Assembly: GCA_000092065.1 (NCBI GenBank)
Contig: CP000595.1
Origin: Ostreococcus lucimarinus
Taxonomy: Eukaryota
Length of the DNA: 64,000 nucleotides
Direction: 5' to 3' (one strand)
Under the pieces are notes generated by a model. That model saw nothing but the letters and a program-made list of their open reading frames with translations. It did no database searches and was not told where the DNA came from. This document shows, in pieces, positions 1 to 49,534 of this stretch (its first letter is position 1; each line of letters starts with the position of its first letter). Position numbers and translations under genes: made by a program.

Positions 1-1374
1 GGCAAAGTTCATGGCGCTGTCCACGTCCCCGCCCGAGTGCGTGGTCTTTAAAACCCACAAGTAATGTTTGAAAGAATCGATCATTTGCGGCATGTGGAAC
101 GCGGGGCCGTGGATGCCGTCCGAGCGCCAACCCGCCTTCATACCGGCCAAATCTTCTCGCGTCAAGCCGGCGTTATCCCACAAGTGCGCCCAGAAATCGT
201 CCCAGTTACCGGTGTGCAAAAAGTGCAGGTATGCCTCGCAAATCTTCACATCATCGGGCGTGGTGTTAGAGTGAAGCTTTTGATGCCACTGCGCGATGAA
301 CGGATCCTCGATTCCCGGACGATGTCCCTCTTTGATGCCGTGCGTTCGCATGATGTTCAAGATGCCCATGCGAATATCGTCGCCGTTGCCTCCTCCGCGC
401 GGTAAGAATGCGAGCGAGGCGCGCATGAGTCCGCGCGACGTGGCGTCCGGCGCCGTCGTCGCCGCGTGCGCGATGCGTCCCGCCAAGCGCTCTTGCTTGC
501 TCGCCATGTCCTTGCCCTGGTAATTGTTCCCGGCGTACCAGTGCAACTGGCGCAGCGAGCTCAGGCGCAACCACGCGTAGACGAGCGCCGCACCCTCGGG
601 CCCGATCGCCAACGCGGCGTCCAGGGCGTCGTCAACCATGCAAAATCGCGTGAACAAGTTCACGCTCCCACCCTCGTGCTCGGCGGCGCGTCGCGCCAAC
701 GATTCCGCGCCCGCCGCGCCGCCGCCGCCGCCCGCCGCGGATTCTCTCACCCTCATCTCCACGTCCCCGTCCTCCGCGTGCGCCCAAAACTCTCCGCACA
801 CGACGATCCCGACGATCGACCCAACGTTTCTCAACCCCTCGACGTCCCCTTCGCTCGCGTTCGAGCAATCCATCTCCAACGTCAGCGTCCCGCTCGCGTC
901 GAACGCGCTCCTCGACGCGATCCCGTCCCCGAAATCCCTACTCCCCGTCCTCGCCTCCAGCCCGCGCGGCGCCTTCGCCCACGACCCATCGCCATCGACC
1001 GCCCGCGTCGCCCAGTGCAGTTCGACCTCGCCTCTCGCGCACCGCTCCAGGAGCGCGTCGTCCGCCGCCCGCAGCGTCGCCGTCGTCGTCCCGTTCGCGC
1101 GCGTCCGCGTCTCCACTCGCACCGCGTGCCCCCCCGCGAGCGCGTGCGTCGTCTCGCGGACCACGTCCGGGACGTCCGCCTTTTTTTCGCGCGCGCCGGC
1201 GCCTCGTCCGACGCGCGCGCGCGTCCCGGCGTCGATCGCGCCGCGCGCCGTGGATAGCGTTCCTCGCGAAGATCGCGTCGCGCGGCGCGCCGTCGCGCGG
1301 TCGATCGTCGCGCGCGCCGCGTCCGCGCGCGCGAACGTCGCGCGCGTCGCGTCGCGCGCGAGAGAGACGCGCAT
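1..1374 (-). CDS. alpha-glucan water dikinase (GWD)-like protein, N-terminal part; gene continues past the left window edge
   Basis: Minus-strand frame is open from about 1374 to base 1 and is not in the ORF track because it has no stop in the window. Translation contains WHQKLHSNTTPDDVKICEAYLHFL and LVYAWLRLSSLRQLHWYAGNNYQ (conserved GWD central region) and a CBM45-like VELHWATRAVDGDGSWAKAP. The N-terminus MRVSLARDATRATF... is Ala/Arg/Ser/Thr-rich and resembles a transit peptide. The true start is uncertain. Confidence 0.55.
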   Translation of the reverse strand, partial: MRVSLARDATRATFARADAARATIDRATARRATRSSRGTLSTARGAIDAGTRARVGRGAGAREKKADVPDVVRETTHALAGGHAVRVETRTRANGTTTATLRAADDALLERCARGEVELHWATRAVDGDGSWAKAPRGLEARTGSRDFGDGIASRSAFDASGTLTLEMDCSNASEGDVEGLRNVGSIVGIVVCGEFWAHAEDGDVEMRVRESAAGGGGGAAGAESLARRAAEHEGGSVNLFTRFCMVDDALDAALAIGPEGAALVYAWLRLSSLRQLHWYAGNNYQGKDMASKQERLAGRIAHAATTAPDATSRGLMRASLAFLPRGGGNGDDIRMGILNIMRTHGIKEGHRPGIEDPFIAQWHQKLHSNTTPDDVKICEAYLHFLHTGNWDDFWAHLWDNAGLTREDLAGMKAGWRSDGIHGPAFHMPQMIDSFKHYLWVLKTTHSGGDVDSAMNFA

Positions 1375-1516
1375 CGCGCGCGCGCGCGTCGTCGGTCGCG
1401 GTGTGACGATTCGCTTCGACGAATCGAATCGTCAGAGCGCGACGCCGCGCCGCGCGGACGCGTCGACGCGCGGCGCGACGCGACGGCGACGCGCGCGGTC
1501 CTCCGCGGCGTTTCGC

Positions 1517-1726
1517 ATGTGCGGCGCGTGCCGCGCGCGGCGCGCGAGCGCGAGAGAGACGACGACGCGCGCGGAATTCTGCGCGCCGTGTCGCGACGGC
1601 GCGAGAGCGACGACGACGCGCGCGACGCGCGTCGCGGACGGGGCGTCGTTCGACGTCGTCGTGTGCGGCGCGGGCGCGGCGGGGACGTCGTTCGCGCGGA
1701 CGTACCTGGAGACGACGGCGCGGGGT

Positions 1727-1766
<40 letters not shown>

Positions 1767-3241
1767 CGCGCGGCGCGAGGCTGCTGCTGCTCGATCGCGG
1801 CGGATGCGCGAAGACGGTCGAGCGCGTGGAGCGCGTGACGCGGCGGGCGTCGGTGTACGGCGCGCGGGAGAGCGCGCTGGGGGCGCTGGAGGCGCTGGGG
1901 GCGCGGACGGCGACGGCGAGCGTCGCGGCGTGCGACGCCGAGTCGAAGACGTTGACGCTGGACGACGGCGCGCGCGTGCGGTACGGCGCGCTGTGCGTCG
2001 CCACGGGGGCGACGCCGCGATGTCCGCTGCCGGAGGCGAGCGATGGAGCGGTCGACGCGCACGAGGTGCGAGACGTGGAGAGCGCGGACGCGCTGGCGAG
2101 ACGGTTGAGCTCGATGACGGCGACGGCGAGCGCGGATTCGGATTCAAAGACGAAACGGATCGCGATCGCGGGGAACGGAGGGATCGCGCTCGAGCTCGTC
2201 GACGCGCTCTGTGTGCGAGGTTTGCGCGCGCGAGGGTTGGAGGCGTGCGAATTGGTGTGGTTGGTGAAACACGGCGAAGTCGGCGACGCCTTTTTCGACG
2301 TCGACGCCGCGGATTTCTTGCTGCGCGCGCTCGACGCGAGACGGCGAGACGGCGAGGCGAAAGACGACGACGGCGCGGACGTGGACTGGGACTCACCGAC
2401 GCCCGAACGCGGTGCCGGACGATCGACGAAGAAGCGCGCGCGAGGGCGCGAATCAGGCGCCGCCGCCGGTCCGGATTGGCTCGACAGATTTAGAGCGAAG
2501 AGCGCGGCGGACGACGCGCGCGCGCCTCTCAGCCGCATGAAGCTTCGCGTGCTGAAAAATGTGTGCATACGCGAAGCGCGTAAAGACGCAAACACCGGCG
2601 TCAACGTATTGACGCTGAGCGATGGGACGACGATCGAGGTGGACGCCGTCGTCGCCGCCGCGGGCGTCGAGCCGAGATGCGATTGGCTCGACGAAGTCGC
2701 CGCGCCGAGGTCGAAATCAGACGGCGGTATACTCGTCGATGCGTGCATGCGCACCGTAGGACCGTACGGCGACTCAATATTTGCCGTCGGCGACGCGTGC
2801 ACGATGTCGGCGCGCGCGTCGAACCCAGAGACGCCGTGGTTTCAAATGCGACTGTGGAGCCAGGCGGCGCAAACAGGCGCCTTCGCCGCGAAAGTCGCCG
2901 TGGGCGTCTGCGACGCCGACGCCCTCGGATTCAATTTCGAAATCTTTACCCACGTCACCAGGTTTTTCGGTCTCAAAGTCATCTTGCTCGGGCTGTACAA
3001 CGCCCAGAAGCTCGACGACGTCCCGGCGAACGAGGTGACGACGTACCAGCGCGAGTCGCTCGCCGACGCGACGTACGTGCGCGTGCTCCTCGTCCGCGGT
3101 CGCATGATGGGCGCCGTGCTCGTCGGCGACACCGATCTCGAGGAAACTTTCGAAAACCTAATCTTAGACGGCGTCGATCTATCGCGTTTCGGTCCGAGTT
3201 TACTCGATCCCGAGCTCGACTTGGAGGATTATTTCGACTGA
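1517..3241 (+). CDS. PYROXD1-like pyridine nucleotide-disulfide oxidoreductase (FAD/NAD(P)-binding), copy 1
   Basis: Rossmann motif FDVVVCGAGAAG is present. The C-terminal block WFQMRLWSQAAQTGAFAAKV...FEIFTHVTRFFGLKVILLGLYNAQ...RGRMMGAVLVGDTDLEETFENLILDGVDLS...LLDPELDLEDYFD matches the PYROXD1 C-terminal domain almost motif for motif. Start is taken at MCGACRAR. The upstream part of ORF 638..3241 is antisense to the GWD gene and is rejected. Confidence 0.75.
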
Positions 3242-3323
3242 CGCGACGCGCGAGACGAGCGAGAAACGAATGAAATCAAATGACAATCAACCCTAGACAA
3301 CTACCACCGTCCGACGCCCGCGC

Positions 3324-3674
3324 TCAGTGCGGTTTCGGCACGAACCCGTCCACCGCGAAATTCCGCGTCGCGCGCGGTAAAATCACGACGCATCCCTCCA
3401 ACGCTCCGCGCTCCAGCGTCACCTGACACCCCAACCTCGACGTCGCCGTCAACCCGTACGCCAAATCTAACATGTCGTTCTCGTCGTCGCACGCCTCCGG
3501 CAGCGTCTCGAACACTTTTTCGTCCTCGAACACGACGTGGCACGTGGAACACGCGAGCGAGCCCTCGCACGCGCCCTCGAGCTCGACGTCGTGCCGGTGC
3601 GCCGTCTCCAGCAGGTTCTCGCCAATCAATCCGCGCACCGCGCGTCGCTCACCGTCGCGCTCGACGAACGTCAC
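3324..3674 (-). pseudogene. truncated adrenodoxin-type [2Fe-2S] ferredoxin fragment (duplicate lacking N-terminus and ATG)
   Basis: Encodes the same C-terminal 116 aa as the full gene at 10442..11047, including CEGSLACSTCHVVFEDE and LGCQVTL. It starts at a GTG, the in-frame upstream sequence has no ATG, and the duplication boundary (about 3727) cuts off the presequence. Confidence 0.6.
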
Positions 3675-4283
3675 CTCGATCGAGTTCTCGGGCGTGAGTT
3701 TCGTCTTTTTGTCCGCGCCGTGCGCGACCGTGATCCCGGCTCGTCCACGTGGCGCGTACGAATAAGAATGAGAATGAGAATGCGCGGCGATCGAGCGTCT
3801 TCGTTCGCGCGGTCGCGTCCCCGCGCTCGGCCGCTCGTGCGTTCGCGCGCGTTCGCGGTCGAGTCGATCACCGGACGACGCGTTCGTTCGCGCGTCGTCG
3901 AGTGCGGCGACCGAGGGCCGTCGCGCCCGGTGATGCGATGTCCACGTGGGATCGTGGAATATCTGGCTGTGTGCGTAAACAGTGACGGGGGGCTTCTCGG
4001 ATCGACCCCGCGGCCCGTGGGGAGAGGGGCATGGTGTTGGATGGTGTGTACGCGAAACGTGTGTGCATCATACGTATATTGACCCAAAGGTATCTATCAC
4101 GTGTAAAGGTACTAATGTGTGTGTGAAATTCAATGATGGGTCATGACTCGAGAACGGGGGGGGGAGGCACACCCGGGATGCGCGCCGATTCTTATCGACA
4201 GAGGAGGACGAGGAGGACGATTGGCGCGCGCGTCGCGTTCGATGGAAAACCGATGTCGTATGACAAACAGATAAAAACGTTAT

Positions 4284-5918
4284 TTAGTGCGCGTGCCCGT
4301 GCGAGTGGCCGCCGCCGCCGCCGGCTGTGCAGTGCTTGTGGTTGAGGAGCACGAGACTGACGGCGACGACGCCGACGACGAACGTCAAGAGGCTCGCCGC
4401 GCGAAGACGAGACGTAGTGGCGCTCACCGAAACTCGCGGCATACACTCCGCGGCAGCGATTTGTAGATAGATTCCAGCGCCAAAGGCGAGCAAAAGTCCG
4501 TGCCAGAAGTCGTTGTTACTTCCAGATCCAACGCTGATGAGAACGCCGAGGATGACGCTCACGCCGGAGATGAAGTTCATGAACAGCGAGCGAAACGGCG
4601 TGAGATCGCCCTGGAAGGGATCCGTGAGTACCAAATAGTCGGCGAGCTCTTGCGCGATTTCGTGATAGACGGTCGCGGCGGTGATCGACCATCCCATGGT
4701 CTTTCCACAGTTCAGGAAACCGAATCCGATGAAGATGCCATCCACGAGGTTGTGCATGAAATCTCCGAGGATGATGCCGCTTCGAACGCGATACTTGTGC
4801 GAGTGGCACGTTTCGCAATCTTCTTGAACGCCTTTGATCGCGTTCTCCGCGTCGATCGTCTTCGTCTCGGCTAAACGAGAAGGGAACGCGATGGAGATGC
4901 CCAAATCGATGATGTACGCCACGAGAAAGCCAAAGACGGACGCGGACGCCCACCACGCGGTTTGTTGCGACTCATCCGAACCGGCGGGTTTGATCAAATG
5001 CGTGGCTTCGTACAACATCAGATAGAACGCAGCCGAAAGAAGTGCACCGGCGGCAAAGGAGTTAATGATGCAACTCACGAATTCGGGGTACGCTTTCTGC
5101 TTCTTCGCGAAGCTCGGAGAGAGAAAGATGACGCCGGAAAGCGTGACGATGTTGACGATGATCGCCGCCCCGATGGCGTCGGACCACGGTTTTGATTTCT
5201 TTGTAGTCACCGTTTCGGGAAGCGAAGCCACTGGCTCCACGTCATCCCCGTTGACATCCTTGAGATAGTGCGTATCGCGCTCGAACTCGGTGGGAACGTG
5301 CTCGGCGAAAATCGAGACGGCGGCGACGCCAGTCGTATCAATCTTAAACGACGACGTGTGCCAAGCGTTATCAAATTGAAGTTTGACGCATCCACTCCCG
5401 GGCGTCAAAACGCTGTTTCGCGTTTTAACCGTCGTGCACGCCGTCTCGAGCGCGGCCTCGCCCGCGTCCTCGCGAGCCTCGAGCTCTTCGTGTCCGGCGG
5501 CGGTTTCGGCGTAGATGACCATCTTCATGGTCGCGTCCGCGTACTGGTCCTTCACCTTTTCCGCCTGCCACACGTACGCATCGTCCGGAGTCTCAAAGAT
5601 CCCCGCCCATTCGAACGAGTGCGCGTGCGCGCCGGACGCGAGCGCGCCGCGCGCCGCGAGCGCGCTCGAGACGACCGCCGCGCCTCCGAGCGCGGCGCCC
5701 ATCCTCCATCCGCCTCCTCGTCGTCGTCGTCGTCGTCCCGCGCCCGCGGTCGCGTCTCGCGTCGTCATCGCGTCGCGCATCGTCTCGTCTATCGTCTCGT
5801 GCATCGTCTCGTTCGTCGTCGTCGTCGTCGTCGCGCGTCGTCGAGTGCGGCGACCGCGCGCGCCGGCATCGCGACGAGACGACTCGAACCGGCGCGAGGG
5901 GGGTACTTCTCGAGTCAT
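4284..5918 (-). CDS. ZIP-family metal (zinc) transporter, LIV-1-like subtype
   Basis: TM4 motif HNLVDGIFIGFGF and TM5 motif YHEIAQELADYLVL (HExxxExxD) are present. There is a His-rich C-terminal tail GGGGGHSHGHAH and a long extracellular N-domain. A probable signal peptide MGAALGGAAVVSSALAARGALASG suggests the true start is at about 5702. Confidence 0.8.
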   Translation of the reverse strand: MTREVPPSRRFESSRRDAGARGRRTRRRATTTTTTNETMHETIDETMRDAMTTRDATAGAGRRRRRRGGGWRMGAALGGAAVVSSALAARGALASGAHAHSFEWAGIFETPDDAYVWQAEKVKDQYADATMKMVIYAETAAGHEELEAREDAGEAALETACTTVKTRNSVLTPGSGCVKLQFDNAWHTSSFKIDTTGVAAVSIFAEHVPTEFERDTHYLKDVNGDDVEPVASLPETVTTKKSKPWSDAIGAAIIVNIVTLSGVIFLSPSFAKKQKAYPEFVSCIINSFAAGALLSAAFYLMLYEATHLIKPAGSDESQQTAWWASASVFGFLVAYIIDLGISIAFPSRLAETKTIDAENAIKGVQEDCETCHSHKYRVRSGIILGDFMHNLVDGIFIGFGFLNCGKTMGWSITAATVYHEIAQELADYLVLTDPFQGDLTPFRSLFMNFISGVSVILGVLISVGSGSNNDFWHGLLLAFGAGIYLQIAAAECMPRVSVSATTSRLRAASLLTFVVGVVAVSLVLLNHKHCTAGGGGGHSHGHAH

Positions 5919-5943
5919 GACTCGATATTCATGAGAACACCAT

Positions 5944-5971
5944 GTGTCGACACCTCGCGAGGTGTCGACAC
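5944..5971. promoter_or_regulatory. 28-bp composite palindrome GTGTCGACAC-CTCGCGAG-GTGTCGACAC containing two ZDRE-like sites (RTGTCGACAY)
   Basis: Read directly from the sequence. It lies in the divergent promoter between the ZIP gene (minus) and the bZIP-like gene (plus). Confidence 0.5.
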
Positions 5972-6017
5972 GCGTGTCTTCGTACGTCCGCGCGCGACGA
6001 CGACGACGACGACGAGG

Positions 6018-6680
6018 ATGACGACCGTCGGCGGCGCCGCGCGACGTGACGATCGAGGCTCGGCGTTGCCTCCGCGATGCGTCGAGATCGCGCGCGAGTC
6101 GCCGTCGGCGTCGCCGTCTCGAAGGAAAACGCCCGCGAACGATCGCGCCGTCAATCGCGCCGCCGTGCGACGGTACCGCGAGCGCAAACGAATGGACGAG
6201 AAGGAGAGAATCGAGGAGTGCGAACGGTTGCGCGGGGAGAACGAGACGTTGAGACTGGCGTTGGAGACGTCACGAGCGGAGTTGAAACATTCGAGGTGGT
6301 TGTTGCGCGTCGTCGCGTGGAAGTACGACTTAGACTTGGCGGATATTCCGACGGAGAAACCGTCGACGTCGACGATGCCGCAAGGGAGGGTGAGAGGAAG
6401 CGATGCAAACGCGGTGTTTCCCGCGGGTGGGGTCCCCGCGCGGAACGACATCGCGCGACCGTTCGCCGCGCGCGGCGTCGCCGAGACGCGGCCTCGGAAA
6501 ATTCCTCGCGCAGCCGACGACGACGCGAAACCGGCGGGCGCGCCTGATGAACTCGAGCTCAAAGATTTCTTGGAGGAATACTTCACGCACGGCGACGCGT
6601 GCCCGTGCTACGAGATCACGGACGCGGACGCGCGCGCGGCGCCGACGCGCGGCGCCGACGCGCGGCACGCGTGGTTCTAG
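6018..6680 (+). CDS. small bZIP-like protein with C-terminal His/Asp/Cys-Pro-Cys motif (paralog A)
   Basis: Basic region NRAAVRRYRERKR (N-x7-R) is followed by a Leu heptad zipper, a conserved ELKHSRWLLRVVA block, and the C-terminal FLEEYFTHGDACPCYE. Start is taken at MTTVGG; the longer ORF 5268..6680 overlaps the ZIP gene and the palindrome. Confidence 0.6.
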   Translation: MTTVGGAARRDDRGSALPPRCVEIARESPSASPSRRKTPANDRAVNRAAVRRYRERKRMDEKERIEECERLRGENETLRLALETSRAELKHSRWLLRVVAWKYDLDLADIPTEKPSTSTMPQGRVRGSDANAVFPAGGVPARNDIARPFAARGVAETRPRKIPRAADDDAKPAGAPDELELKDFLEEYFTHGDACPCYEITDADARAAPTRGADARHAWF

Positions 6681-6869
6681 GTATGACGACACATTTACGT
6701 CACACGGTGAAACGTTTTACGCTTCTAATATTATATTATAAAGTTAGTCAACCTATATAGTTACACGCACCACATGATGTCACACGTGATGTGCACACGC
6801 GTATGTATTCGTACTGTGAGTACAATAAGCCTAACATTGTGTAAAATCCCGTGCCCACGATGATCGCGC

Positions 6870-6879
6870 GTGTCGACAC
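6870..6879. promoter_or_regulatory. ZDRE-like palindrome GTGTCGACAC upstream of the COG0523 gene
   Basis: Exact 10-mer about 75 bp upstream of the MADEQDQ ATG. A CACGTG G-box at about 6783 lies in the AT-rich region just upstream. Confidence 0.45.
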
Positions 6880-6952
6880 GAACAGACGGTTGGCCGAAAA
6901 GGCGAAAGGGTCGGCGGCTGTCGTCATCTCTCGACGAACGTTGGCGCTCGAC

Positions 6953-8167
6953 ATGGCGGACGAGCAAGACCAGACCTCGCGCGTGCCGGTGACCATTCTC
7001 ACCGGATTTCTCGGTTCCGGGAAGACGACGCTCCTCAATGAAATCTTGGAATCCGAAACGCACGGATTGCGCTTCGCGGTGATTGAAAATGAATTCGGAG
7101 AGGTGGGCGTCGACGAGAGGATTCTGTCGGAGAAGGCGGACGAAGAGATCATCGAGGTCATGAACGGTTGCATCTGCTGCACGGTGCGCGGTGATCTCGT
7201 GGTGGCGCTGAAAAAGCTCTACTCGAAGATCGCGCAGTTCGACGCCGTCATCATCGAGACGACGGGTTTGGCGGATCCGGCGCCGGTGGCGCAGACGTTC
7301 TTCGTCGACGATGACATTCGAGAAAAGTTTGTGCTCGACGGAATCATCACGGTCACGGACGCGAAGCACATCCTCACGCGGCTCGATGATGAAAAACCCG
7401 AGGGTGTGGAGAATGAAGCCGCCGAACAGGTCGCTTTTGCCGATCGGATACTCCTCAACAAGACCGACTTGGTGTCCGAAGACGAACTCGAAACCATCAC
7501 GGGCCGGATCAAGCAAATTAATCCGAGCGCCGATATCTTCCGATGCCAGTATTCCAAGGTTGATCCGAAAAATTTGATCGGAATCAATTCCTTCTCGCTC
7601 GAGAAGACCTTAAAAATGGATCCCGAATTCCTCAACACGGAGGGCGAGCATGAACACGACCCAACCGTGTCTTCGACGAGCACAAAATTCTCTGGGCACC
7701 TCAACATCAATAAATTAGAACGCTGGATAGGCGAAATAATTCAAACAATGGGTGCGGACTTGTTTCGGTACAAGGGTGTTCTTTCCGTTGCGGGCATGGA
7801 TCAAAAGTTTGTTTTCCAGGGCGTCGGCATGCTTTTCTCCGGCGGCTTCGTCGACGCCAAGTGGGGAGCCGACGAGGAGCGCGAATGCCGCTTCGTCTTC
7901 ATCGGTAAAAATCTGGACAAAGACGCCCTCATCAACGGTTTCATGGATTGCAAGTGTTCCTCGAAGCTTCGCTTCAAGGTGGGCGACGCGGTTCTCGCGC
8001 AGGTGGGCGCCGCCGACAACGACGGCTACTGCCGCGGCACCGTCCGTAAGACGTGGGACTCGGGCAACCCGTACCAGATCGAACTTGAAGACGGTAAAAA
8101 GACAAAAGTGTGGGGACCCGTCGACGAAGACGAGTTCGTCAAAGCTTCGCTCAGCGCCACCGCGTAA
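6953..8167 (+). CDS. COG0523 / CobW-family GTPase (ZNG1/ZCP-like zinc metallochaperone) with extra C-terminal domain
   Basis: Walker A motif GFLGSGKTT and the metal-binding motif GCICC are present, with a CobW C-terminal domain. The extra C-terminal module is KLRFKVGDAVLAQVG...YQIELEDGKKTKVWGPVDEDEF. Start is moved to MADEQDQ because the ZDRE-like site lies inside the annotated ORF start region. Confidence 0.85.
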   Translation: MADEQDQTSRVPVTILTGFLGSGKTTLLNEILESETHGLRFAVIENEFGEVGVDERILSEKADEEIIEVMNGCICCTVRGDLVVALKKLYSKIAQFDAVIIETTGLADPAPVAQTFFVDDDIREKFVLDGIITVTDAKHILTRLDDEKPEGVENEAAEQVAFADRILLNKTDLVSEDELETITGRIKQINPSADIFRCQYSKVDPKNLIGINSFSLEKTLKMDPEFLNTEGEHEHDPTVSSTSTKFSGHLNINKLERWIGEIIQTMGADLFRYKGVLSVAGMDQKFVFQGVGMLFSGGFVDAKWGADEERECRFVFIGKNLDKDALINGFMDCKCSSKLRFKVGDAVLAQVGAADNDGYCRGTVRKTWDSGNPYQIELEDGKKTKVWGPVDEDEFVKASLSATA

Positions 8168-8315: not shown

Positions 8316-8492
8316 CTCGCCTCGTCCGACGCGCGCGCGCGTCCCGGCGTCGATCGCGCCGCGCGCCGTGGATAGCGTTCCTCGCGAAGATCGCGTCGCG
8401 CGGCGCGCCGTCGCGCGGTCGATCGTCGCGCGCGCCGCGTCCGCGCGCGCGAACGTCGCGCGCGTCGCGTCGCGCGCGAGAGAGACGCGCAT
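8316..8492 (-). pseudogene. orphan 5' fragment of the GWD-like gene (first about 60 codons) carried in duplication copy 2
   Basis: ORF 8151..8492 begins MRVSLARDATRATF..., identical to the GWD N-terminus at 1198..1374, then reads into unrelated sequence. Confidence 0.4.
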
Positions 8493-8634
8493 CGCGCGCG
8501 CGCGCGTCGTCGGTCGCGGTGTGACGATTCGCTTCGACGAATCGAATCGTCAGAGCGCGACGCCGCGCCGCGCGGACGCGTCGACGCGCGGCGCGACGCG
8601 ACGGCGACGCGCGCGGTCCTCCGCGGCGTTTCGC

Positions 8635-8844
8635 ATGTGCGGCGCGTGCCGCGCGCGGCGCGCGAGCGCGAGAGAGACGACGACGCGCGCGGAATTCTGC
8701 GCGCCGTGTCGCGACGGCGCGAGAGCGACGACGACGCGCGCGACGCGCGTCGCGGACGGGGCGTCGTTCGACGTCGTCGTGTGCGGCGCGGGCGCGGCGG
8801 GGACGTCGTTCGCGCGGACGTACCTGGAGACGACGGCGCGGGGT

Positions 8845-8884
<40 letters not shown>

Positions 8885-10359
8885 CGCGCGGCGCGAGGCT
8901 GCTGCTGCTCGATCGCGGCGGATGCGCGAAGACGGTCGAGCGCGTGGAGCGCGTGACGCGGCGGGCGTCGGTGTACGGCGCGCGGGAGGACGCGCTGGGG
9001 GCGCTGGAGGCGCTGGGGGCGCGGACGGCGACGGCGAGCGTCGCGGCGTGCGACGCCGAGTCGAAGACGTTGACGCTGGACGACGGCGCGCGCGTGCGGT
9101 ACGGCGCGCTGTGCGTCGCCACGGGGGCGACGCCGCGATGTCCACTGCCGGAGGCGAGCGATGGAGCGGTCGACGCGCACGAGGTGCGAGACGTGGAGAG
9201 CGCGGACGCGCTGGCGAGACGGTTGAGCTCGATGACGGCGACGGCGAGCGCGGATTCGGATTCAAAGACGAAACGGATCGCGATCGCGGGGAACGGAGGG
9301 ATCGCGCTCGAGCTCGTCGACGCGCTATGTGTGCGAGGTTTGCGCGCGCGAGGGTTGGAGGCGTGTGAATTGGTGTGGTTGGTGAAACACGGCGAAGTCG
9401 GCGACGCCTTTTTCGACGTCGACGCCGCGGATTTCTTGCTGCGCGCGCTCGACGCGAGACGGCGAGACGGCGAGGCGAAAGACGACGACGGCGCGGACGT
9501 GGACTGGGACTCACCGACGCCCGAACGCGGTGCCGGACGATCGACGAAGAAGCGCGCGCGAGGGCGCGAATCAGGCGCCGCCGCCGGTCCGGATTGGCTC
9601 GACAGATTTAGAGCGAAGAGCGCGGCGGACGACGCGCGCGCGCCTCTCAGCCGCATGAAGCTTCGCGTGCTGAAAAATGTGTGCATACGCGAAGCGCGTA
9701 AAGACGCAAACACCGGCGTCAACGTATTGACGCTGAGCGATGGGACGACGATCGAGGTGGACGCCGTCGTCGCCGCCGCGGGCGTCGAGCCGAGATGCGA
9801 TTGGCTCGACGAAGTCGCCGCGCCGAGGTCGAAATCAGACGGCGGTATACTCGTCGATGCGTGCATGCGCACCGTAGGACCGTACGGCGACTCAATATTT
9901 GCCGTCGGCGACGCGTGCACGATGTCGGCGCGCGCGTCGAACCCAGAGACGCCGTGGTTTCAAATGCGACTGTGGAGCCAGGCGGCGCAAACAGGCGCCT
10001 TCGCCGCGAAAGTCGCCGCGGGCGTCTGCGACGCCGACGCCCTCGGATTCAATTTCGAAATCTTTACCCACGTCACCAGGTTTTTCGGTCTCAAAGTCAT
10101 CTTGCTCGGGCTGTACAACGCCCAGAAGCTCGACGACGTCCCGGCGAACGAGGTGACGACGTACCAGCGCGAGTCGCTCGCCGACGCGACGTACGTGCGC
10201 GTGCTCCTCGTCCGCGGTCGCATGATGGGCGCCGTGCTCGTCGGCGACACCGATCTCGAGGAAACTTTCGAAAACCTAATCTTAGACGGCGTCGATCTAT
10301 CGCGTTTCGGTCCGAGTTTACTCGATCCCGAGCTCGACTTGGAGGATTATTTCGACTGA
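8635..10359 (+). CDS. PYROXD1-like oxidoreductase, copy 2
   Basis: Identical to copy 1 except for two residues. Its upstream flank is the 3' region of the COG0523 gene. Confidence 0.75.
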
Positions 10360-10441
10360 CGCGACGCGCGAGACGAGCGAGAAACGAATGAAATCAAATG
10401 ACAATCAACCCTAGACAACTACCACCGTCCGACGCCCGCGC

Positions 10442-11047
10442 TCAGTGCGGTTTCGGCACGAACCCGTCCACCGCGAAATTCCGCGTCGCGCGCGGTAAAA
10501 TCACGACGCATCCCTCCAACGCTCCGCGCTCCAGCGTCACCTGACACCCCAACCTCGACGTCGCCGTCAACCCGTACGCCAAATCTAACATGTCGTTCTC
10601 GTCGTCGCACGCCTCCGGCAGCGTCTCGAACACTTTTTCGTCCTCGAACACGACGTGGCACGTGGAACACGCGAGCGAGCCCTCGCACGCGCCCTCGAGC
10701 TCGACGTCGTGCCGGTGCGCCGTCTCCAGCAGGTTCTCGCCAATCAATCCGCGCACCGCGCGTCGCTCACCGTCGCGCTCGACGAACGTCACCTCGATCG
10801 AGTTCTCGGGCGTGAGTTTCGTCTTTTTGTCCGCGCCGTGCGCGATCCGCGGCGACGCGGAGACGCCGCGAGCGACGTAAAGCTGGGCAGGTTTCTGGGA
10901 CGCGCGCGGCGCGGCGTCCCGGGGACGCGACGCCGACGCGCGCGGGAGGGCGGTCGAGGCGAAACACGCGGTCGACGACGACGACGACGACGACGACGCG
11001 CATCGCGCGCTCGCGGCGGCGCACGCGCGCGCGAGACGGCGAAACAT
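10442..11047 (-). CDS. adrenodoxin-type [2Fe-2S] ferredoxin with N-terminal organellar presequence
   Basis: Cys ligand motifs CEGSLACSTCHV...LGCQV are present. The Ala/Ser/Arg-rich N-terminus MFRRLARACAAASARC looks like an organellar presequence. It is convergent with the oxidoreductase, with 83 bp between their stops. Confidence 0.85.
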   Translation of the reverse strand: MFRRLARACAAASARCASSSSSSSSTACFASTALPRASASRPRDAAPRASQKPAQLYVARGVSASPRIAHGADKKTKLTPENSIEVTFVERDGERRAVRGLIGENLLETAHRHDVELEGACEGSLACSTCHVVFEDEKVFETLPEACDDENDMLDLAYGLTATSRLGCQVTLERGALEGCVVILPRATRNFAVDGFVPKPH

Positions 11048-12597: not shown

Positions 12598-13095
12598 ATG
12601 CTCGACTTGATCGACCACGTCGATGAGCGCTCGGTGGAGTGCCTGAACGCGCTGACGGACGAGAGCTGGCGCAACGCGCTGTGGCCCGGACCGCGGGATC
12701 GGGCGTCGTCGACGCTCGTGAGCGACGACGACGAGGAGCTCATCCTGCGCGTGGAGTTCACGTCCAACGTGCGACCGCGCGCGGTGAAAATCGCGGGCGC
12801 GAGCGCGACGCACGCGCGCGAGGACGCGAGCGCGCCGCGGGTGGTGAAGATATTCGTGAACGCGCCGAGTCTGAGCTTTGAGAATGCGGCCAAGCGGCGC
12901 GCGGCGCAAGTCGTCGAGCTCGACGGCGACGACGAGGTCGAGCTCGACGTGACGGCGTTTGAGAACGTGCGCGTGATGACGTTTTACGTGGAGAGCAACG
13001 TGGGCGGGACGGCGCGGACGGAGATCGGGAGGATCGATATCAAGGGCGAGCTCTCGGGCGAGCTGCGAGACGTGTCGGAGCTCAAGCCGTGCTGA
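12598..13095 (+). CDS. PITH-domain protein
   Basis: Blocks similar to PITHD1 are present: VECLNALTDE, DDDEELILRVEFTSNV and VMTFYVESNVGG...IGRIDIKGE. Confidence 0.65.
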   Translation: MLDLIDHVDERSVECLNALTDESWRNALWPGPRDRASSTLVSDDDEELILRVEFTSNVRPRAVKIAGASATHAREDASAPRVVKIFVNAPSLSFENAAKRRAAQVVELDGDDEVELDVTAFENVRVMTFYVESNVGGTARTEIGRIDIKGELSGELRDVSELKPC

Positions 13096-26487: not shown

Positions 26488-26699
26488 CGAATCCGTCCCT
26501 CTTATCGATGACGCGTCTTTTTCGTCGTCGCGCCGGCGTCGCGCGTTCGCGCGTCCGAAACGCCGCCCGAGCGCGTTCGACGCGCGTCCGCTCGCGAATC
26601 CGAGAGCGCGTCGCCGTCGTCGCGTCCGCGTCGCGGTGTGCGCGTCCCGAATCGCGCCGTCCCAGGCCCCTCTTCGTCGCACTTCGCCGCGCGACGCGA

Positions 26700-27194
26700 A
26701 TGCGCGCGTCGCGCGGCGACGACGCGCCGGCGCTCCCGGGACGCGCGGTCGCGGTGGACGAAGACAAAAAATCGATCGACAACGACGCGAACAAGCGCGC
26801 CGTCAAGCGCTACCGCGATCGTCAGCGCGACGCGAAGATGAAGTTGGAATCCGAAAACGCGGCGCTGCGAGTGGAGACGACGCGGTTGGCGACGGAGCTC
26901 GCGCACGCGCGATGGGTGCTCGACGCGGTGGCGTCGCGGTGCGGGATGAAGCGACGCGCGACGGGGCGCGACGCGGACGCGGCGCTGCGCCGAAGCGTCG
27001 CGCGCGTGATCCACGGCGCGGGGTGCCCGCTGGGACATCAGGGGCGGGACAGGCCGTTTCGATTGGACGCGACGGAGGCGAGGCGACGCGAGGACGAGGA
27101 CGAGGACGAGTTGGCGGCGTTTTTGAAGGAGTTTTTGGTGCACGAGGACGGGAAGTGTCCGTGCCCGGGGCGCGCGCGCGATGGGGGCGAGTAG
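26700..27194 (+). CDS. small bZIP-like protein with C-terminal Cys-Pro-Cys motif (paralog B)
   Basis: NKRAVKRYRDRQR (N-x7-R) is followed by an L-x6-L-x6-L zipper, the conserved ELAHARWVLDAVA block and FLKEFLVHEDGKCPCPG. It has the same architecture as paralog A. Confidence 0.6.
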   Translation: MRASRGDDAPALPGRAVAVDEDKKSIDNDANKRAVKRYRDRQRDAKMKLESENAALRVETTRLATELAHARWVLDAVASRCGMKRRATGRDADAALRRSVARVIHGAGCPLGHQGRDRPFRLDATEARRREDEDEDELAAFLKEFLVHEDGKCPCPGRARDGGE

Positions 27195-29166: not shown

Positions 29167-29397
29167 CTTGTCTCGCGCCGTCGCGAATCGCGCGCGCGTC
29201 GAGTCCCGGTCTCGACGCCCGCGCCCGGTTCGCCCCGGTTCGAGCGCGCGCGAACGAGCCGAAGAGGCGTCGCGAAGTGCGGCGATGCGCGCGCGTCGTG
29301 CACGTGTCGACGATTCGCGTCGTGCACGTGTCGAGGATCGTCGTACGCGACGCCCCGCGAAGCCCATCACGGATCGCGTCGCGACGCGCGTCGTAAA

Positions 29398-29497
29398 CAT
29401 GTCGACACGCATGTCGACATATTTACCCACGCGCGTGTACGCATTGAACCCCGTGATGCATCTATATACGAAAAACGTCTCGACGCACATGTCGACA
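29398..29497. promoter_or_regulatory. three ZDRE-like palindromes (ATGTCGACAC at 29398, ATGTCGACAT at 29410 and 29488) in the promoter shared by the ZIP and LHC genes
   Basis: Exact 10-mers read from the sequence. They lie about 230-330 bp upstream of both flanking start codons. Confidence 0.5.
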
Positions 29498-29565
29498 TAT
29501 TTACCCCACGCGCGTGTACGCATTGAACCCCGTGATGCATCTATATACGAAACAGATAAATGCAC
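29408..29565. repeat. about 78-bp tandem repeat (2 copies), relatively AT-rich, carrying the ZDRE-like motifs
   Basis: catgtcgacatatttaccc(c)acgcgcgtgtacgcattgaaccccgtgatgcatctatatacgaaa occurs twice. Confidence 0.6.
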
Positions 29566-29715: not shown

Positions 29716-30987
29716 ATGTTCAAGACGAAAGCCCCCGCGCCGAAGACGGCGGTGAAGAAATCCGCGCCGGCGAAGAAGGCGCCGGCGAAGAAGGCGCCGG
29801 CGAAGAAGGTCGCGGCGAAGAAGGCGCCCGTTCGCAAGGCGGGCGACGACGAGGTGCGACGCGAACGACGACGATCGCGACGACCGGGCGCGCGCGACGA
29901 CGCGATGGCGCGCGCGACGACGCGATTGAATGGGAAGAATATTCGCGGCGCGCGTCGGGCGGGGACGGCGCGACGCGCGGCGGGAGGGGAGACGGGAAGG
30001 CGATGGATGCGCGGACGGGGACGATATCCTGGAGATATGGTTTGACGCGCGCGACGCGGGCGCGAGACGCGAGGGCGGCGCGCGGCGCGAGACGGTCGCG
30101 AACGATCGAGAGGGAGAGAAATCGTGGACGCGCGCGCGGTGCGGGACGGATCGGCGGGTCGACGCGCGCGGTGGGCGACGCGGGAGGGCGCGACGCGAAG
30201 ACGACGAGACGACGCGAGACGGAGGACTGACGGCGAACGCTCGCGTTCTCGCGCGATAGCTCTGGCGTCCGGGTGCCGTGCGACCGGCGTGGTTGGATGG
30301 CTCTCTCCCGGGTGACCGTGGATTCGATCCGTTCAACTTGTCCAAGTGCGTGTGGCGACGTGACGCGATGCGACGCGAGCGCGCGAGACGCGTCGACGAA
30401 TCGCAGACTGACGGCGTTTGTTTCGCAGGCCGATTGAATACGTTCAATTCGATCTTGACGCTCTCGATGGCTCCGCCGCGACGAACCCGGCGGGTCGGGT
30501 GATCGGTAAGCTCAAGAAGACCGACAACAAGCCGAAGGCGCGCGCGATCGTGCCGTACGACGAGTCCTTCGACATCATGCGCTTCCGCGAGTGCGAACTC
30601 TTGCACTCTCGCTGGGCCATGCTCGGCTTGGTCGGCGCCACCGCCGCGGAAGCCGCCACGGGTATCTCCTGGGCCGACGCCGGTAAGGTTGAACTTGAAC
30701 AACCGCAATACCTCGGCTTCCCGCTCCCGGGCTTGTCCGTCGCCTCCTTGACGGCGATTGAAGTGCTCGCGATGGGTTACCTCGAAGTCGCCCGCTCGGC
30801 GGAGCTCGACCAAAACAAGCGCATGTACCCGGGCGGCGCGTTCGACCCGCTCGGCTACGTCGCCAACGCCGACGCCGAGGAGGAATTCCGCCTCAAGACG
30901 GCTGAACTCAAGCACGGTCGCTTGGCAATGGTGGGCATGTTGATCATCTCCATCGAAGCCGCGGCCGGCCACGGCGTGCTTCCGTAA
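29716..30987 (+). CDS. light-harvesting chlorophyll a/b-binding protein (Lhca-like), three exons: join(29716..29853, 30260..30345, 30429..30987)
   Basis: Exon 2 encodes the Lhca-type [29 protein letters not shown]. Exon 3 has helix 1 [16 protein letters not shown] and helix 3 [14 protein letters not shown]. The donors are GTGCGA and GTGCGT, both introns have a CTGAC branch, and the acceptors are ...gatag and ...tttcgcag. The spliced CDS is 783 nt in frame. Exon 1 is Lys/Ala-rich ([15 protein letters not shown]...). Confidence 0.7.
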
Positions 30988-48385: not shown

Positions 48386-49534
48386 TCACCGTTTGCGTTT
48401 CTTGTGCTCGTCGTGCGAAAGCTTGAGCGCGGCGCAAATTGTGACGTACGCGCCCTCCGGGATATCGCGGGCGATTTCGTCCAGCGCCGACATCGCGTCG
48501 TCGAGCTTTGATTCTTCCGCGTCTTTCAGCGTGAGCATGTACGTCAGGCACGCGGTAAAGTGCAATCTACGCGCGGCGTCGATGCACTGGTCTTTGTCCC
48601 AAGGACACCCGTGCTCGTGCGCGTACTTCAAACACTCCAACTGTCCATCATAGGCGGCATCACGGCACGTATCCTCGTTCCAAGGACACCCGCGCTCGTG
48701 CGCGTACTTCAAACACTCCAAGCTTCCACTCCCGGCGGCACGTGCGCACGTCTCCTCGTGCCAAGGACACCCGTTCTCGTGCGCGTACTTCAAACACTCC
48801 AAATGTCCATTCAAGGCGGCAAATGAGCACGTCCTCTCGTTCCAAGGACATCCGTGCTCGCGCGCGTACTTCAAACACTCCAAATGTCCATTCGAGGCGG
48901 CAACCGCGCACGTTTTCTCGTCCCAAGGACACCCGCGCTCGTGCAAGTACTTCAAACACTCCAACTGTCCTTTCCAGGCGGCAGAGATGCACGTCTCTTC
49001 GTCCCAATCACACCCTTGCTCGTGCGCGTACTTCAAACACTCCAACTGTCCATTCGAAGCGGCATTATTGCACGTCCTCAGGTTCCAATCGCATCCGTGC
49101 TCGCGCGCGTACTTCAAACACTCCAACTGTCCATGCGAAGCGGCAGCGTTGCACGTCCCTTTGTCCCAAGGACACCCGTGCTCGTGCGCGTACTTCAAAC
49201 ACTCCAAATGTCCACTATAGGCGGCACATGCGCACGTATCCTCGTGCCAAGGACACCCGTTCTCGTGCGCGTACTTCAAACACTCCAAATGTCCATTCGA
49301 GGCGGCAGACTTGCACGTCCAAGCGTTCCAACGACACCCGCGCTCGCGCAAGTACTTTAAACATTCCAAATGTCCAGTCGAAGCGGCTTCCGCGCAGTCC
49401 GGCGCCGTGAACGCGAGCGCGAGCAAGCGCATATAACTTTCATGTCCATTCAAAGCGGCTTCCGCGATGTGCGACGCCGCGAACGCGCGCTCGCGCAAGC
49501 GCGCCAACGCGGTCGCCTCCTCGCTCGACGCCAT
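48386..49534 (-). CDS. protein with 10 tandem 27-aa ankyrin-like repeats
   Basis: Repeat unit A(S/A)NGHLECLKYAHE(N/H)GCPW(D/N)ExTCxxA. The helix part matches the ANK consensus AAxNGHLEVVKLL. Start is taken at MASSEEAT. Confidence 0.7.
   Translation of the reverse strand: MASSEEATALARLRERAFAASHIAEAALNGHESYMRLLALAFTAPDCAEAASTGHLECLKYLRERGCRWNAWTCKSAASNGHLECLKYAHENGCPWHEDTCACAAYSGHLECLKYAHEHGCPWDKGTCNAAASHGQLECLKYAREHGCDWNLRTCNNAASNGQLECLKYAHEQGCDWDEETCISAAWKGQLECLKYLHERGCPWDEKTCAVAASNGHLECLKYAREHGCPWNERTCSFAALNGHLECLKYAHENGCPWHEETCARAAGSGSLECLKYAHERGCPWNEDTCRDAAYDGQLECLKYAHEHGCPWDKDQCIDAARRLHFTACLTYMLTLKDAEESKLDDAMSALDEIARDIPEGAYVTICAALKLSHDEHKKRKR
48540..49365. repeat. 81-bp in-frame tandem DNA repeat (about 10 units) encoding the ankyrin-like array
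   Basis: The periodicity is visible in both sense and antisense translations (RTSNTPNVHSRRQ recurs every 27 aa in ORF 48742..49410). Confidence 0.7.

Follow-up and report, generated by a model that had tools for sequence, protein, structure and literature searches.

The window analyzed here, a 64,000-nucleotide stretch of the Ostreococcus lucimarinus genome (GenBank assembly GCA_000092065.1, contig CP000595.1), contains two groups of genes that encode metal transporters of the ZIP family and basic-leucine zipper (bZIP) proteins, and the spacers of both groups carry the palindrome RTGTCGACAY, which in land plants is the zinc-deficiency response element (ZDRE). The first group consists of adjacent genes for a ZIP transporter (ZIP1), a bZIP protein (bZIP1) and a COG0523 GTPase; the second combines a His-rich ZIP transporter (ZIP2) with a paralog of bZIP1 (bZIP2). 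We interpret these genes as a conserved metal-deficiency regulon of Mamiellales, most plausibly a zinc-deficiency regulon that is controlled through ZDREs and bZIP factors, with the two bZIP paralogs encoded inside the regulon as its probable regulators; the probability of this interpretation is, in our estimate, about 0.55. Possibly, the regulon is broader and concerns divalent metals in general.

A palindrome confined to metal-gene spacers

The window contains six copies of the 10-mer RTGTCGACAY (starts at 5944, 5962, 6870, 29399, 29411, and 29489) vs 0.50 copies expected from the mean of 100 dinucleotide-preserving shuffles of the window, none of which reaches six. All copies are confined to three spacers, namely those between the divergent ZIP1 and bZIP1 genes, between bZIP1 and COG0523, and upstream of ZIP2. 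This recount agrees with the preliminary description of the window, which had placed all six copies at the promoters of these genes, two of them between the ZIP and bZIP genes and one 75 bp before the COG0523 start codon. The 8-mer core TGTCGACA is likewise found six times (1.36 expected), in each case as part of a RTGTCGACAY site; therefore, every core in the window has the purine and pyrimidine flanks. A search of the window that allowed one mismatch gave 15 sites vs 11.4 expected, which is no enrichment: the signal is carried by perfect ZDREs and by one specific variant with A at position 4, RTGACGACAY (hereinafter A-variant), not by other one-mismatch sites. The commonest variant of the land plant ZDRE is written RTG[T/A]CGACAY (PMC5476651). 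Taken as one to four copies of RTGTCGACAY or RTGACGACAY at the promoters of zinc-uptake genes, the element is present in the window by sequence.

The two ZDREs of the divergent spacer are located 242-260 bp 5' of ZIP1 (most likely start at 5702) and 56-74 bp 5' of bZIP1. The preliminary description had also reported a second ZIP gene with three copies of the palindrome in its promoter. Both the gene and the three sites stand, but the third site belongs to a local tandem duplication of 79 bp, so that the window contains five independent sites rather than six. The duplication (29395-29552) contains the ZDRE copies and, after them, a conserved tail ATATTTACCC, and degenerate copies of the element (ACGTGTCGACGAT, ACGTGTCGAGGAT) are present at 29292-29338 in the same promoter. 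The ZDRE-bearing spacer of ZIP2 is shared with a divergent light-harvesting complex (LHC, chlorophyll a/b-binding) gene (29717-30987, plus strand), as is also the case in the comparison locus L010 (14041-14535). Long open reading frames (ORFs) that read through the ZDREs (e.g., P0001, P0007, and P0019, with the N-terminus MSTPMSTPVSTP) were rejected as over-extensions by the gene caller because GTC-GAC-AC merely translates as V-D-T or S-T-P.

Comparison loci were chosen by protein identity, not by the motif. The preliminary description had raised the question whether orthologous loci in other Mamiellales are syntenic, and they are: gene order and motif are kept in O. tauri and in metagenomic lineages. 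The O. tauri locus (L001) retains the order ZIP(-) bZIP(+) COG0523(+) and has three perfect ZDREs at 12-bp spacing between ZIP and bZIP, the only instances of TGTCGACA in 20.6 kb. The same spacer holds three perfect ZDREs in L002, where one more directly follows the bZIP stop codon; five in L003/L004, which are tied to Ostreococcus sp. RCC789 via a 90%-identity cluster; and two in L005, with one more after the bZIP stop codon and two just 5' of COG0523. In a further lineage of 54% GC (L136/L137), two ZDREs 18 bp apart separate ZIP(-) from bZIP(+), and the ZDRE at 6870 is kept in the O. lucimarinus-like contigs L006-L009. The second group is conserved in L010, with the order HAD(-) bZIP2(+) ZIP2(-) ... 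LHC(+) and a ZIP2 protein that is 51% identical; the only two TGTCGACA cores in 20.9 kb of this locus are both 314-424 bp 5' of ZIP2. Given this identity and a GC content of 63%, L010 probably represents another genus, possibly Micromonas. The order HAD(-) bZIP2(+) ZIP2(-) is also found in L139 and the bZIP2(+)/ZIP2(-) pair in L014, L015, and L138; the contigs L014, L015, and L138-L140 end before the ZIP2 start or less than 300 bp 5' of it and thus inform gene order only. Throughout, ZDRE positions are conserved, although the spacers of these lineages have otherwise diverged.

The A-variant marks COG0523 promoters. The A-variant at 6683 is matched by an A-variant at the corresponding position in O. 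tauri and L003 and by a perfect ZDRE in L002 and L005; in all lineages that retain the order bZIP1-COG0523, an A-variant or a perfect ZDRE lies between the two genes. Both RTGACGACAY copies of the O. tauri locus lie between these two genes, as do two of the four in L003, of which one other precedes a ZIP gene with EF-hand matches and the last is found elsewhere. When six non-redundant loci (152 kb) were pooled, 30 of the 33 RTG[T/A]CGACAY sites fell within the spacers under discussion, that is, within 3.9% of the sequence; the nominal binomial P of ~4e-39 overstates the significance because the sites cluster and orthologous sites are non-independent, but the qualitative result is clear. A metagenome scan for tandem ZDREs (TGTCGACAYN{2,8}RTGTCGACA) yielded, among the matches listed, mostly soil and gut contigs; Ostreococcus accounts for 2 of the 120 loci listed (L027 and L047), and no other tandem-ZDRE locus among these matches encoded relatives of ZIP, COG0523 or bZIP.

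Two additional genes of the comparison loci have the element upstream. The EF-hand ZIP gene of L003 (13036-14796) is a third ZIP paralog that follows COG0523, with an A-variant ZDRE (12929-12938) 107 bp 5' of it. In L005, a perfect ZDRE (ATGTCGACAT, 741-750) is located 116 bp 5' of a 156-amino-acid ORF (156-626, minus strand) that contains a Cys/His cluster (HGCTHLLTHSCSCC), is without a Pfam match and may be a further member of the regulon.

The encoded proteins and the surrounding cassette

Both ZIP1 and ZIP2 score above the Pfam Zip threshold and hence belong to the ZIP family by domain. The preliminary description had assigned ZIP1 to 4284..5918 on the minus strand; the family assignment stands, but the coding sequence most likely starts at 5702, at Met73 of the ORF that reaches 5918, because the O. 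tauri gene is 1422 nucleotides long and metagenome gene calls give proteins of 470-473 amino acids. ZIP1 shows weak similarity to ZupT in NCBIfam, and its orthologs in L001, L002, L003, and L005 are 74-84% identical. ZIP2 contains 33 His residues, a GHGHGHGHG loop and an NCBIfam zip subfamily match (2.5e-29).

The COG0523 protein, which is identical to XP_001421634.1 of O. lucimarinus CCE9901, has the domain composition of this subfamily of G3E GTPases, and the metal motif noted in the preliminary description is present as CICC (CxCC) at residue 73. The species accords with the 'prasinophyte' of the preliminary description. The nearest solved structure is that of E. coli YjiA (1.7e-55). All NCBIfam equivalog cut-offs (YjiA-type, CobW, and ZigA) are missed, and therefore the protein is not assignable to a named COG0523 subfamily. 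A role as true CobW was rejected: the NCBIfam CobW score is far under the cut-off, and B12 was added to the O. tauri medium, Ostreococcus being a B12 auxotroph. Beyond CobW_C, the protein has a C-terminal extension of ~70 amino acids (7950-8167, residues ~333-404) with a weak DUF4537 match (E 0.0019).

The small bZIP-like gene of the preliminary description, bZIP1, passes the Pfam bZIP_2 gathering score. Its homologs at E<=0.01 are close relatives only; the matches are ENA and JGI metagenome proteins and an O. tauri 'Basic-leucine zipper domain' protein, with no NCBI-sourced O. lucimarinus protein among them. Thus, the NCBI annotation of O. lucimarinus CCE9901 apparently lacks bZIP1, even though the adjoining COG0523 gene is annotated, and earlier surveys may have overlooked bZIP1 for this reason. 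The bZIP1 alignment consists of three conserved blocks between variable linkers: the basic region NRAAVRRYRERKR, a zipper that has Asn in an 'a' position, and a C-terminal block (PDELELKxFLEEYFTHGDACPC) with invariant H, C, P, and C (motif residues H191, D193, C195, and C197). The AlphaFold model contains a 63-residue helix (residues 40-102) with pLDDT (predicted local distance difference test) values above 90 and a short helix (178-188) over the acidic block, the rest being disordered. For bZIP2, with orthologs P0198, P0199, P0203, and P0205-P0207, the ORF scores 16.6 bits against Pfam bZIP_2, which is sub-threshold, and the start is most likely at 26700, judging from the orthologs. The bZIP2 family has the basic region NKRAVKRYR (NRAAVRRYR or NRGAVQRYR in a distant lineage) as well as a block AHGxGCPLG...GPFRL; the C-terminus reads FLVH(E/D)DxxCPCPGH, to which some members add a His-rich tail.

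Plant F-group bZIPs (F-bZIPs; NCBI names bZIP19 or bZIP23) were retrieved with an AtbZIP19 fragment (96% identity to database entries). The F-type basic region (N-R-E-A-V-R-K-Y-R-E-K-K-K) reads NREAVRKYREKKK in P0077, P0080, P0098, and P0115 and NKEAVRKYREKKK in P0153, and the five DNA-contact positions N, A, V, Y, and R (N..AV..YR) are identical in bZIP1, bZIP2 and the plant F-bZIPs; pairwise BLASTP of bZIP1 against a plant F-bZIP gives 4e-7 and 31% identity over 75 amino acids. Other plant bZIP groups are of the NxxSAxxSR type, C/EBP proteins have N..AV..SR, and ATF4 has N..AA..YR. Since these signatures all differ, the combination of AV with Y is probably distinctive; among the sequences compared, N..AV..YR is found, besides the algal bZIPs, only in plant F-bZIPs, P0209, and P0217. 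P0217 is 46% identical to bZIP19 over the bZIP domain and has an F-type basic region. P0209 is a 762-amino-acid protein encoded on a metagenome contig of 63% GC (L013, 10001-12289); its two bZIP domains (GNR[AE]AVRRYREKKKA) carry the F-type basic region, and its Cys/His stretches (CVHAHHTC...CWHVHRI) recall the plant sensor motif. As a query, P0209 matched only itself in the homolog search. The spacer upstream of its gene contains two one-mismatch ZDRE sites, GTGTCGGCAY.

Table 1. Coordinates of the proposed regulon genes, ZDREs and flanking repeats in the window
Feature	Coordinates	Strand or location	Evidence or remarks
ZIP1, ZIP-family metal transporter, 472 aa	4284..5702	-	Pfam Zip E 3e-21, 76.4 bits (cut-off 35.1)
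Two perfect ZDREs GTGTCGACAC, 18 bp apart	5944..5971	divergent ZIP1-bZIP1 spacer	motif search
bZIP1, 220 aa	6018..6680	+	Pfam bZIP_2 29.3 bits (gathering score 22.3)
bZIP1 basic region NRAAVRRYRERKR, then zipper	6153-6191	+	alignment
bZIP1 acidic helix and H-G-D-A-C-P-C motif	6546-6608	+	alignment
ZDRE A-variant ATGACGACAC	6683..6692	directly 3' of bZIP1 stop codon	sole RTGACGACAY in window
Perfect ZDRE GTGTCGACAC	6870..6879	~75 bp 5' of COG0523 ATG	motif search
COG0523 G3E GTPase, candidate metallochaperone	6953..8167	+	Pfam cobW 2e-61 (207 bits), CobW_C 9e-23 (80 bits)
bZIP2, 164 aa, bZIP1 paralog	26700..27194	+	BLASTP 1e-9 vs bZIP1; ORF 26508-27194
bZIP2 basic region NKRAVKRYRDRQR		+	sequence
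bZIP2 HGAGCPLG	27012-27035	+	sequence
bZIP2 C-terminal DELAAFLKEFLVHEDGKCPCPG	27105-27170	+	sequence
ZIP2, His-rich ZIP transporter, 496 aa	27676..29166	-	Pfam Zip E 8e-48, 163.8 bits (cut-off 35.1)
Three perfect ZDREs ATGTCGACAC, ATGTCGACAT, ATGTCGACAT	29399..29498	233-332 bp 5' of ZIP2	motif search
Left copy, 2.48-kb direct repeat (Pyr_redox_2 gene and ferredoxin)	1226..3703		6 mismatches, offset 7118
Right copy, same 2.48-kb direct repeat	8344..10821		6 mismatches

The ZIP1-bZIP1-COG0523 cassette is bracketed by the 2.48-kb direct repeats. On the metagenome contig L008, the cassette occurs twice in tandem with a period of 6164 bp, and in L006 and L009 a near-identical cassette (COG0523 100% identical) lies beside RPS26e-DnaJ, a context as in L002. 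From these arrangements, the cassette seems variable in position and copy number among close strains, which suggests that it recently moved or varies in copy number, with assembly artefacts as a possible source. Elsewhere in the window (48492-49439), an 81-bp tandem repeat is present in ~9 copies with 66-82% identity to the reference copy, presumably within a repetitive coding region.

The metal signal and the regulator

Several results weigh against a zinc-deficiency regulon run by these bZIPs, and they come from published expression data on O. tauri and from the bZIP sequences. The O. tauri genes ostta06g02290 (CobW-type, 1296 nucleotides), ostta06g02300 (630 nucleotides, annotated 'ATF4/5, basic-leucine zipper') and ostta06g02310 (ZIP, 1422 nucleotides) are consecutive in supplementary file 5 of PMC4855317, and all three are transcribed; each is exactly as long as its counterpart in L001. 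Following one week in Aquil medium at 54 vs 1080 nM Fe-EDTA, the log fold change (logFC, -Fe/+Fe) was +3.5 (~11-fold) for the CobW-type gene, +0.4 for bZIP, and +2.0 for ZIP (PMC4855317). Thus, COG0523 and ZIP1 rise together, and they do so under long-term low iron in an EDTA-buffered medium, whereas the bZIP1 mRNA barely follows and is mainly day/night-phased. Upon 3-6 h of treatment with desferrioxamine B (DFOB), there was little short-term response (logFC +0.55 for CobW, -0.63 for bZIP, and +0.20 for ZIP; PMC4855317). In the short-term experiment, expression was higher in the dark, with light/dark logFC of -2.0, -5.2, and -2.9 for ostta06g02290, ostta06g02300, and ostta06g02310, respectively (PMC4855317); therefore, diel input also acts on these promoters.

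The low-iron induction speaks for the alternative that retains the ZDREs and bZIP regulators but takes the signal to be limitation for iron or for divalent metals in general (Fe, Mn, Co), with the ZIPs importing Fe2+ or other divalents and COG0523 serving another metal; ZIP transporters are, indeed, often promiscuous. Only two of the six O. tauri ZIP genes are iron-responsive, ostta06g02310 and ostta16g02300 (Ot-Irt1), and the latter, a protein of 470 amino acids with 31 His residues and a GHGHGHGHGHG loop, was proposed by the authors to be an iron importer (PMC4855317). By resemblance, ZIP2 of the window is probably the ortholog of Ot-Irt1; if so, the two ZIPs with ZDREs are also the pair that reacts jointly, in favour of co-regulation. 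The response is, however, weak or absent with DFOB, which is an iron-specific chelator; the plant ZDRE/F-bZIP pair is described as zinc-specific (PMC9643250); and COG0523 genes respond to zinc where tested, being induced by zinc deficiency in Chlamydomonas and regulated by Zur in bacteria (PMC2770081), which favours zinc as the signal. Furthermore, zinc-iron cross-talk in O. tauri is strong, so that the low-iron response may be secondary (PMC4855317 for the cross-talk). We regard iron or a general divalent-metal signal as unlikely, although it is the competitor that has to be taken most seriously.

A second alternative retains the palindrome as a genuine shared cis-element but has it bound by an unrelated factor, the bZIPs being mere targets or neighbours and their contact residues alike by coincidence. 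The preliminary description had pointed to a bZIP-like paralog beside the second ZIP gene; the paralogy holds, but bZIP2 is convergent with ZIP2 and located at its 3' end, so that the ZIP2 promoter is not common to both, and the bZIP2 promoter has no ZDRE of its own in the window. This arrangement and the mainly diel, barely co-induced bZIP1 mRNA would fit a passive role of the bZIPs. No Mamiellales bZIP1 or bZIP2 has a Cys/His cluster N-terminal of the basic region; instead of this plant sensor, bZIP1 has the invariant C-terminal H-x-D-x-C-P-C. Overall similarity to F-bZIPs is no better than that to ATF4-like or C/EBP-like proteins. A profile built from Mamiellales bZIPs only, searched against 1.84 billion representative proteins at E<=1e-3, gave 30 matches, comprising bZIP1 and bZIP2 orthologs, P0209 (the best non-Mamiellales match, E 1.5e-8), P0217 (E 4e-4) and others; the remaining outside matches are mostly animal-type ATF4-like and C/EBP-like proteins, and the land plant F-bZIPs themselves were not reached at this threshold. 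None of the 30 matches comes from other land plant bZIP groups, which hints at F-type affinity. Conversely, a hidden Markov model of 119 plant F-bZIP domains scores P0209 at 53 bits, P0217 at 47, and the bZIP2-type proteins P0203 and P0199 at 24-27, with bZIP1 orthologs at 14-20 bits vs 16-20 for ATF4-like or C/EBP-like proteins. By overall similarity, membership of the algal bZIPs in this family is unproven, and we do not file them as F-bZIPs.

Against an unrelated factor stands the fact that the two bZIP paralogs adjoin two ZDRE-bearing ZIP genes in every examined lineage that holds the pair, that both have N..AV..YR with its narrow distribution, and that no family other than the F-bZIPs is known to bind this palindrome, which is of the non-ACGT kind (PMC5476651). 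Accordingly, we consider an unrelated factor rather improbable. Chance or artefact, i.e., SalI-containing palindromes scattered in GC-rich DNA or locally duplicated together with spurious bZIP ORFs, is in effect refuted by conservation between species: a single site of the six does derive from the 79-bp duplication, GC-rich DNA yields many long spurious ORFs and tandem palindromes are common by chance in huge metagenome collections, but the shuffles never reach six sites, the positions persist between diverged spacers, and the bZIP1 ORF is conserved domain-wise, passes Pfam, is modeled with confidence as a long helix, and has an annotated and transcribed counterpart in O. tauri. Of the zinc-deficiency regulon put forward in the preliminary description, the conserved ZDRE module stands, supported by the F-bZIP contact residues and by the co-induction of two genes, whereas the induction seen is by low iron only and the F-type sensor motif is absent.

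For the preferred interpretation, a zinc-deficiency regulon, we propose that the algal bZIPs work like F-bZIPs. Homo- or heterodimers of bZIP1 and bZIP2 would recognise RTG[T/A]CGACAY via N..AV..YR. At low intracellular zinc, apo-bZIP dimers would bind the paired ZDREs, for which spacings of 12 or 18 bp are recurrent, and would activate, rather than repress, ZIP1 and bZIP1 divergently as well as COG0523 and ZIP2; through the shared divergent promoter, bZIP1 would act on its own gene in a positive loop. Under zinc sufficiency, Zn2+ held by the H-x-D-x-C-P-C motif of bZIP1 next to the acidic amphipathic helix would silence the factor, and the putative zinc ligands of bZIP2 would also include HGxGCPLG. 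This silencing step is modeled on the plant Cys/His sensor motif of bZIP19/23 (PMC9643250) and on the zinc-masked activation domains of yeast Zap1. A tentative extension, which we rate somewhat below even odds, is that the ZDRE/bZIP circuit did not arise in land plants but is at least as old as the ancestor shared by Chlorophyta and Streptophyta, that Ostreococcus and its relatives retained the DNA element and the contact residues while the N-terminal sensor was replaced by the C-terminal HxDxCPC, and that sensor, importer and chaperone became packed in one auto-regulated, copy-variable cassette.

If this extension is correct, no zinc-sensing transcription factor would have been identified before these bZIPs in an alga or in marine phytoplankton. 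The conserved Ostreococcus ZDRE beside bZIPs with the same contact residues makes the land plant origin of the F-bZIP/ZDRE system directly testable. Both possible outcomes are informative: the circuit predates its accepted age by about a billion years, or evolution arrived twice at a rare non-ACGT bZIP site with the same function. Ostreococcus is among the most abundant marine picoeukaryotes, and O. tauri is transformable; the locus offers candidate regulators, a cis-element and sentinel genes (ZIP1, ZIP2, and COG0523) for trace-metal limitation. The O. tauri ZIPs that have been called 'iron-regulated' may be responding to zinc.

Comparison with known systems

The nearest solved structure for bZIP1 is that of ATF4 (1ci6, E 0.003), and the O. 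tauri gene is labelled 'ATF4/5-like'. ATF4 shares the Tyr (N..AA..YR) and C/EBP the Ala-Val (N..AV..SR), but neither has the combined AV+Y or the C-terminal HxDxCPC, and their target sites are CARE and CCAAT-type, respectively. To our knowledge, neither has a metal-sensing role. In terms of circuit logic, the yeast Zap1/ZRE system (ZRT1, ZRT2, and ZAP1 as targets) is similar in that a zinc-responsive activator controls ZIP importers and its own gene via repeated palindromes, and the Zap1 activation domains are masked by direct binding of zinc to adjacent Cys/His ligands. Zap1 is, however, a C2H2 zinc finger protein that binds an 11-bp element (zinc-responsive element, ZRE; ACCTTNAAGGT), and it has no sequence or fold kinship to the algal bZIPs. 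The bacterial Zur regulons (znuABC and COG0523 genes such as ZigA, YeiR, and YciC) likewise place an importer and COG0523 under one palindromic operator, often in adjacent positions (PMC2770081), but Zur belongs to the Fur family and represses its targets, binding DNA in the zinc-loaded form, in a prokaryotic, operon-based setting.

Among green algae, the zinc-deficiency response of Chlamydomonas involves the same gene classes, ZIP (ZRT genes) and COG0523 (ZCP1 and ZCP2), both induced by zinc limitation (PMC2770081); the likeness to the window genes is by class, and no gene clustering was reported. The same 2009 study stated that the zinc sensors, regulators and cis-element were unknown (PMC2770081), and no later identification of green-algal zinc sensors or regulators was found in our literature search. 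The full-text search, with most subscription papers outside its reach, gave no description of a ZDRE element or regulon in algae, and, as the preliminary description had supposed, no account of the present arrangement turned up in the searchable literature. The core TGTCGACA was met there in cloning primers, with no mention of algae. F-bZIPs are said to occur only in land plants, having not been found in O. lucimarinus or Chlamydomonas, and their origin has been linked to terrestrialisation (PMC5476651, PMC9643250).

The closest parallel is, nevertheless, the land plant F-bZIP/ZDRE system (Arabidopsis bZIP19/bZIP23, with ZIP and NAS targets). The 10-bp palindrome is identical, with the same tolerated T/A at position 4, and ZIP promoters contain one to five copies, mostly two or three; the regulators are a paralog pair with the same five contact residues, Asn at a zipper 'a' position, and a conserved Cys/His-containing motif outside the bZIP domain that is a plausible metal sensor. 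The differences concern both the proteins and the gene arrangement. The two-part N-terminal sensor of the plant proteins (CTHTHTC...HTHTCFHVHTK) is missing in the algal bZIPs, in which the candidate sensor is C-terminal, and overall the two sets of proteins are alike only at the generic bZIP level. Furthermore, the algal regulator genes are clustered with their predicted targets, among them COG0523, and bZIP1 is apparently auto-regulated. The F-bZIP/ZDRE system itself is known from land plants; a metal-gene cluster in a green alga that combines the plant-type ZDRE with bZIP genes appears new relative to the searchable literature.

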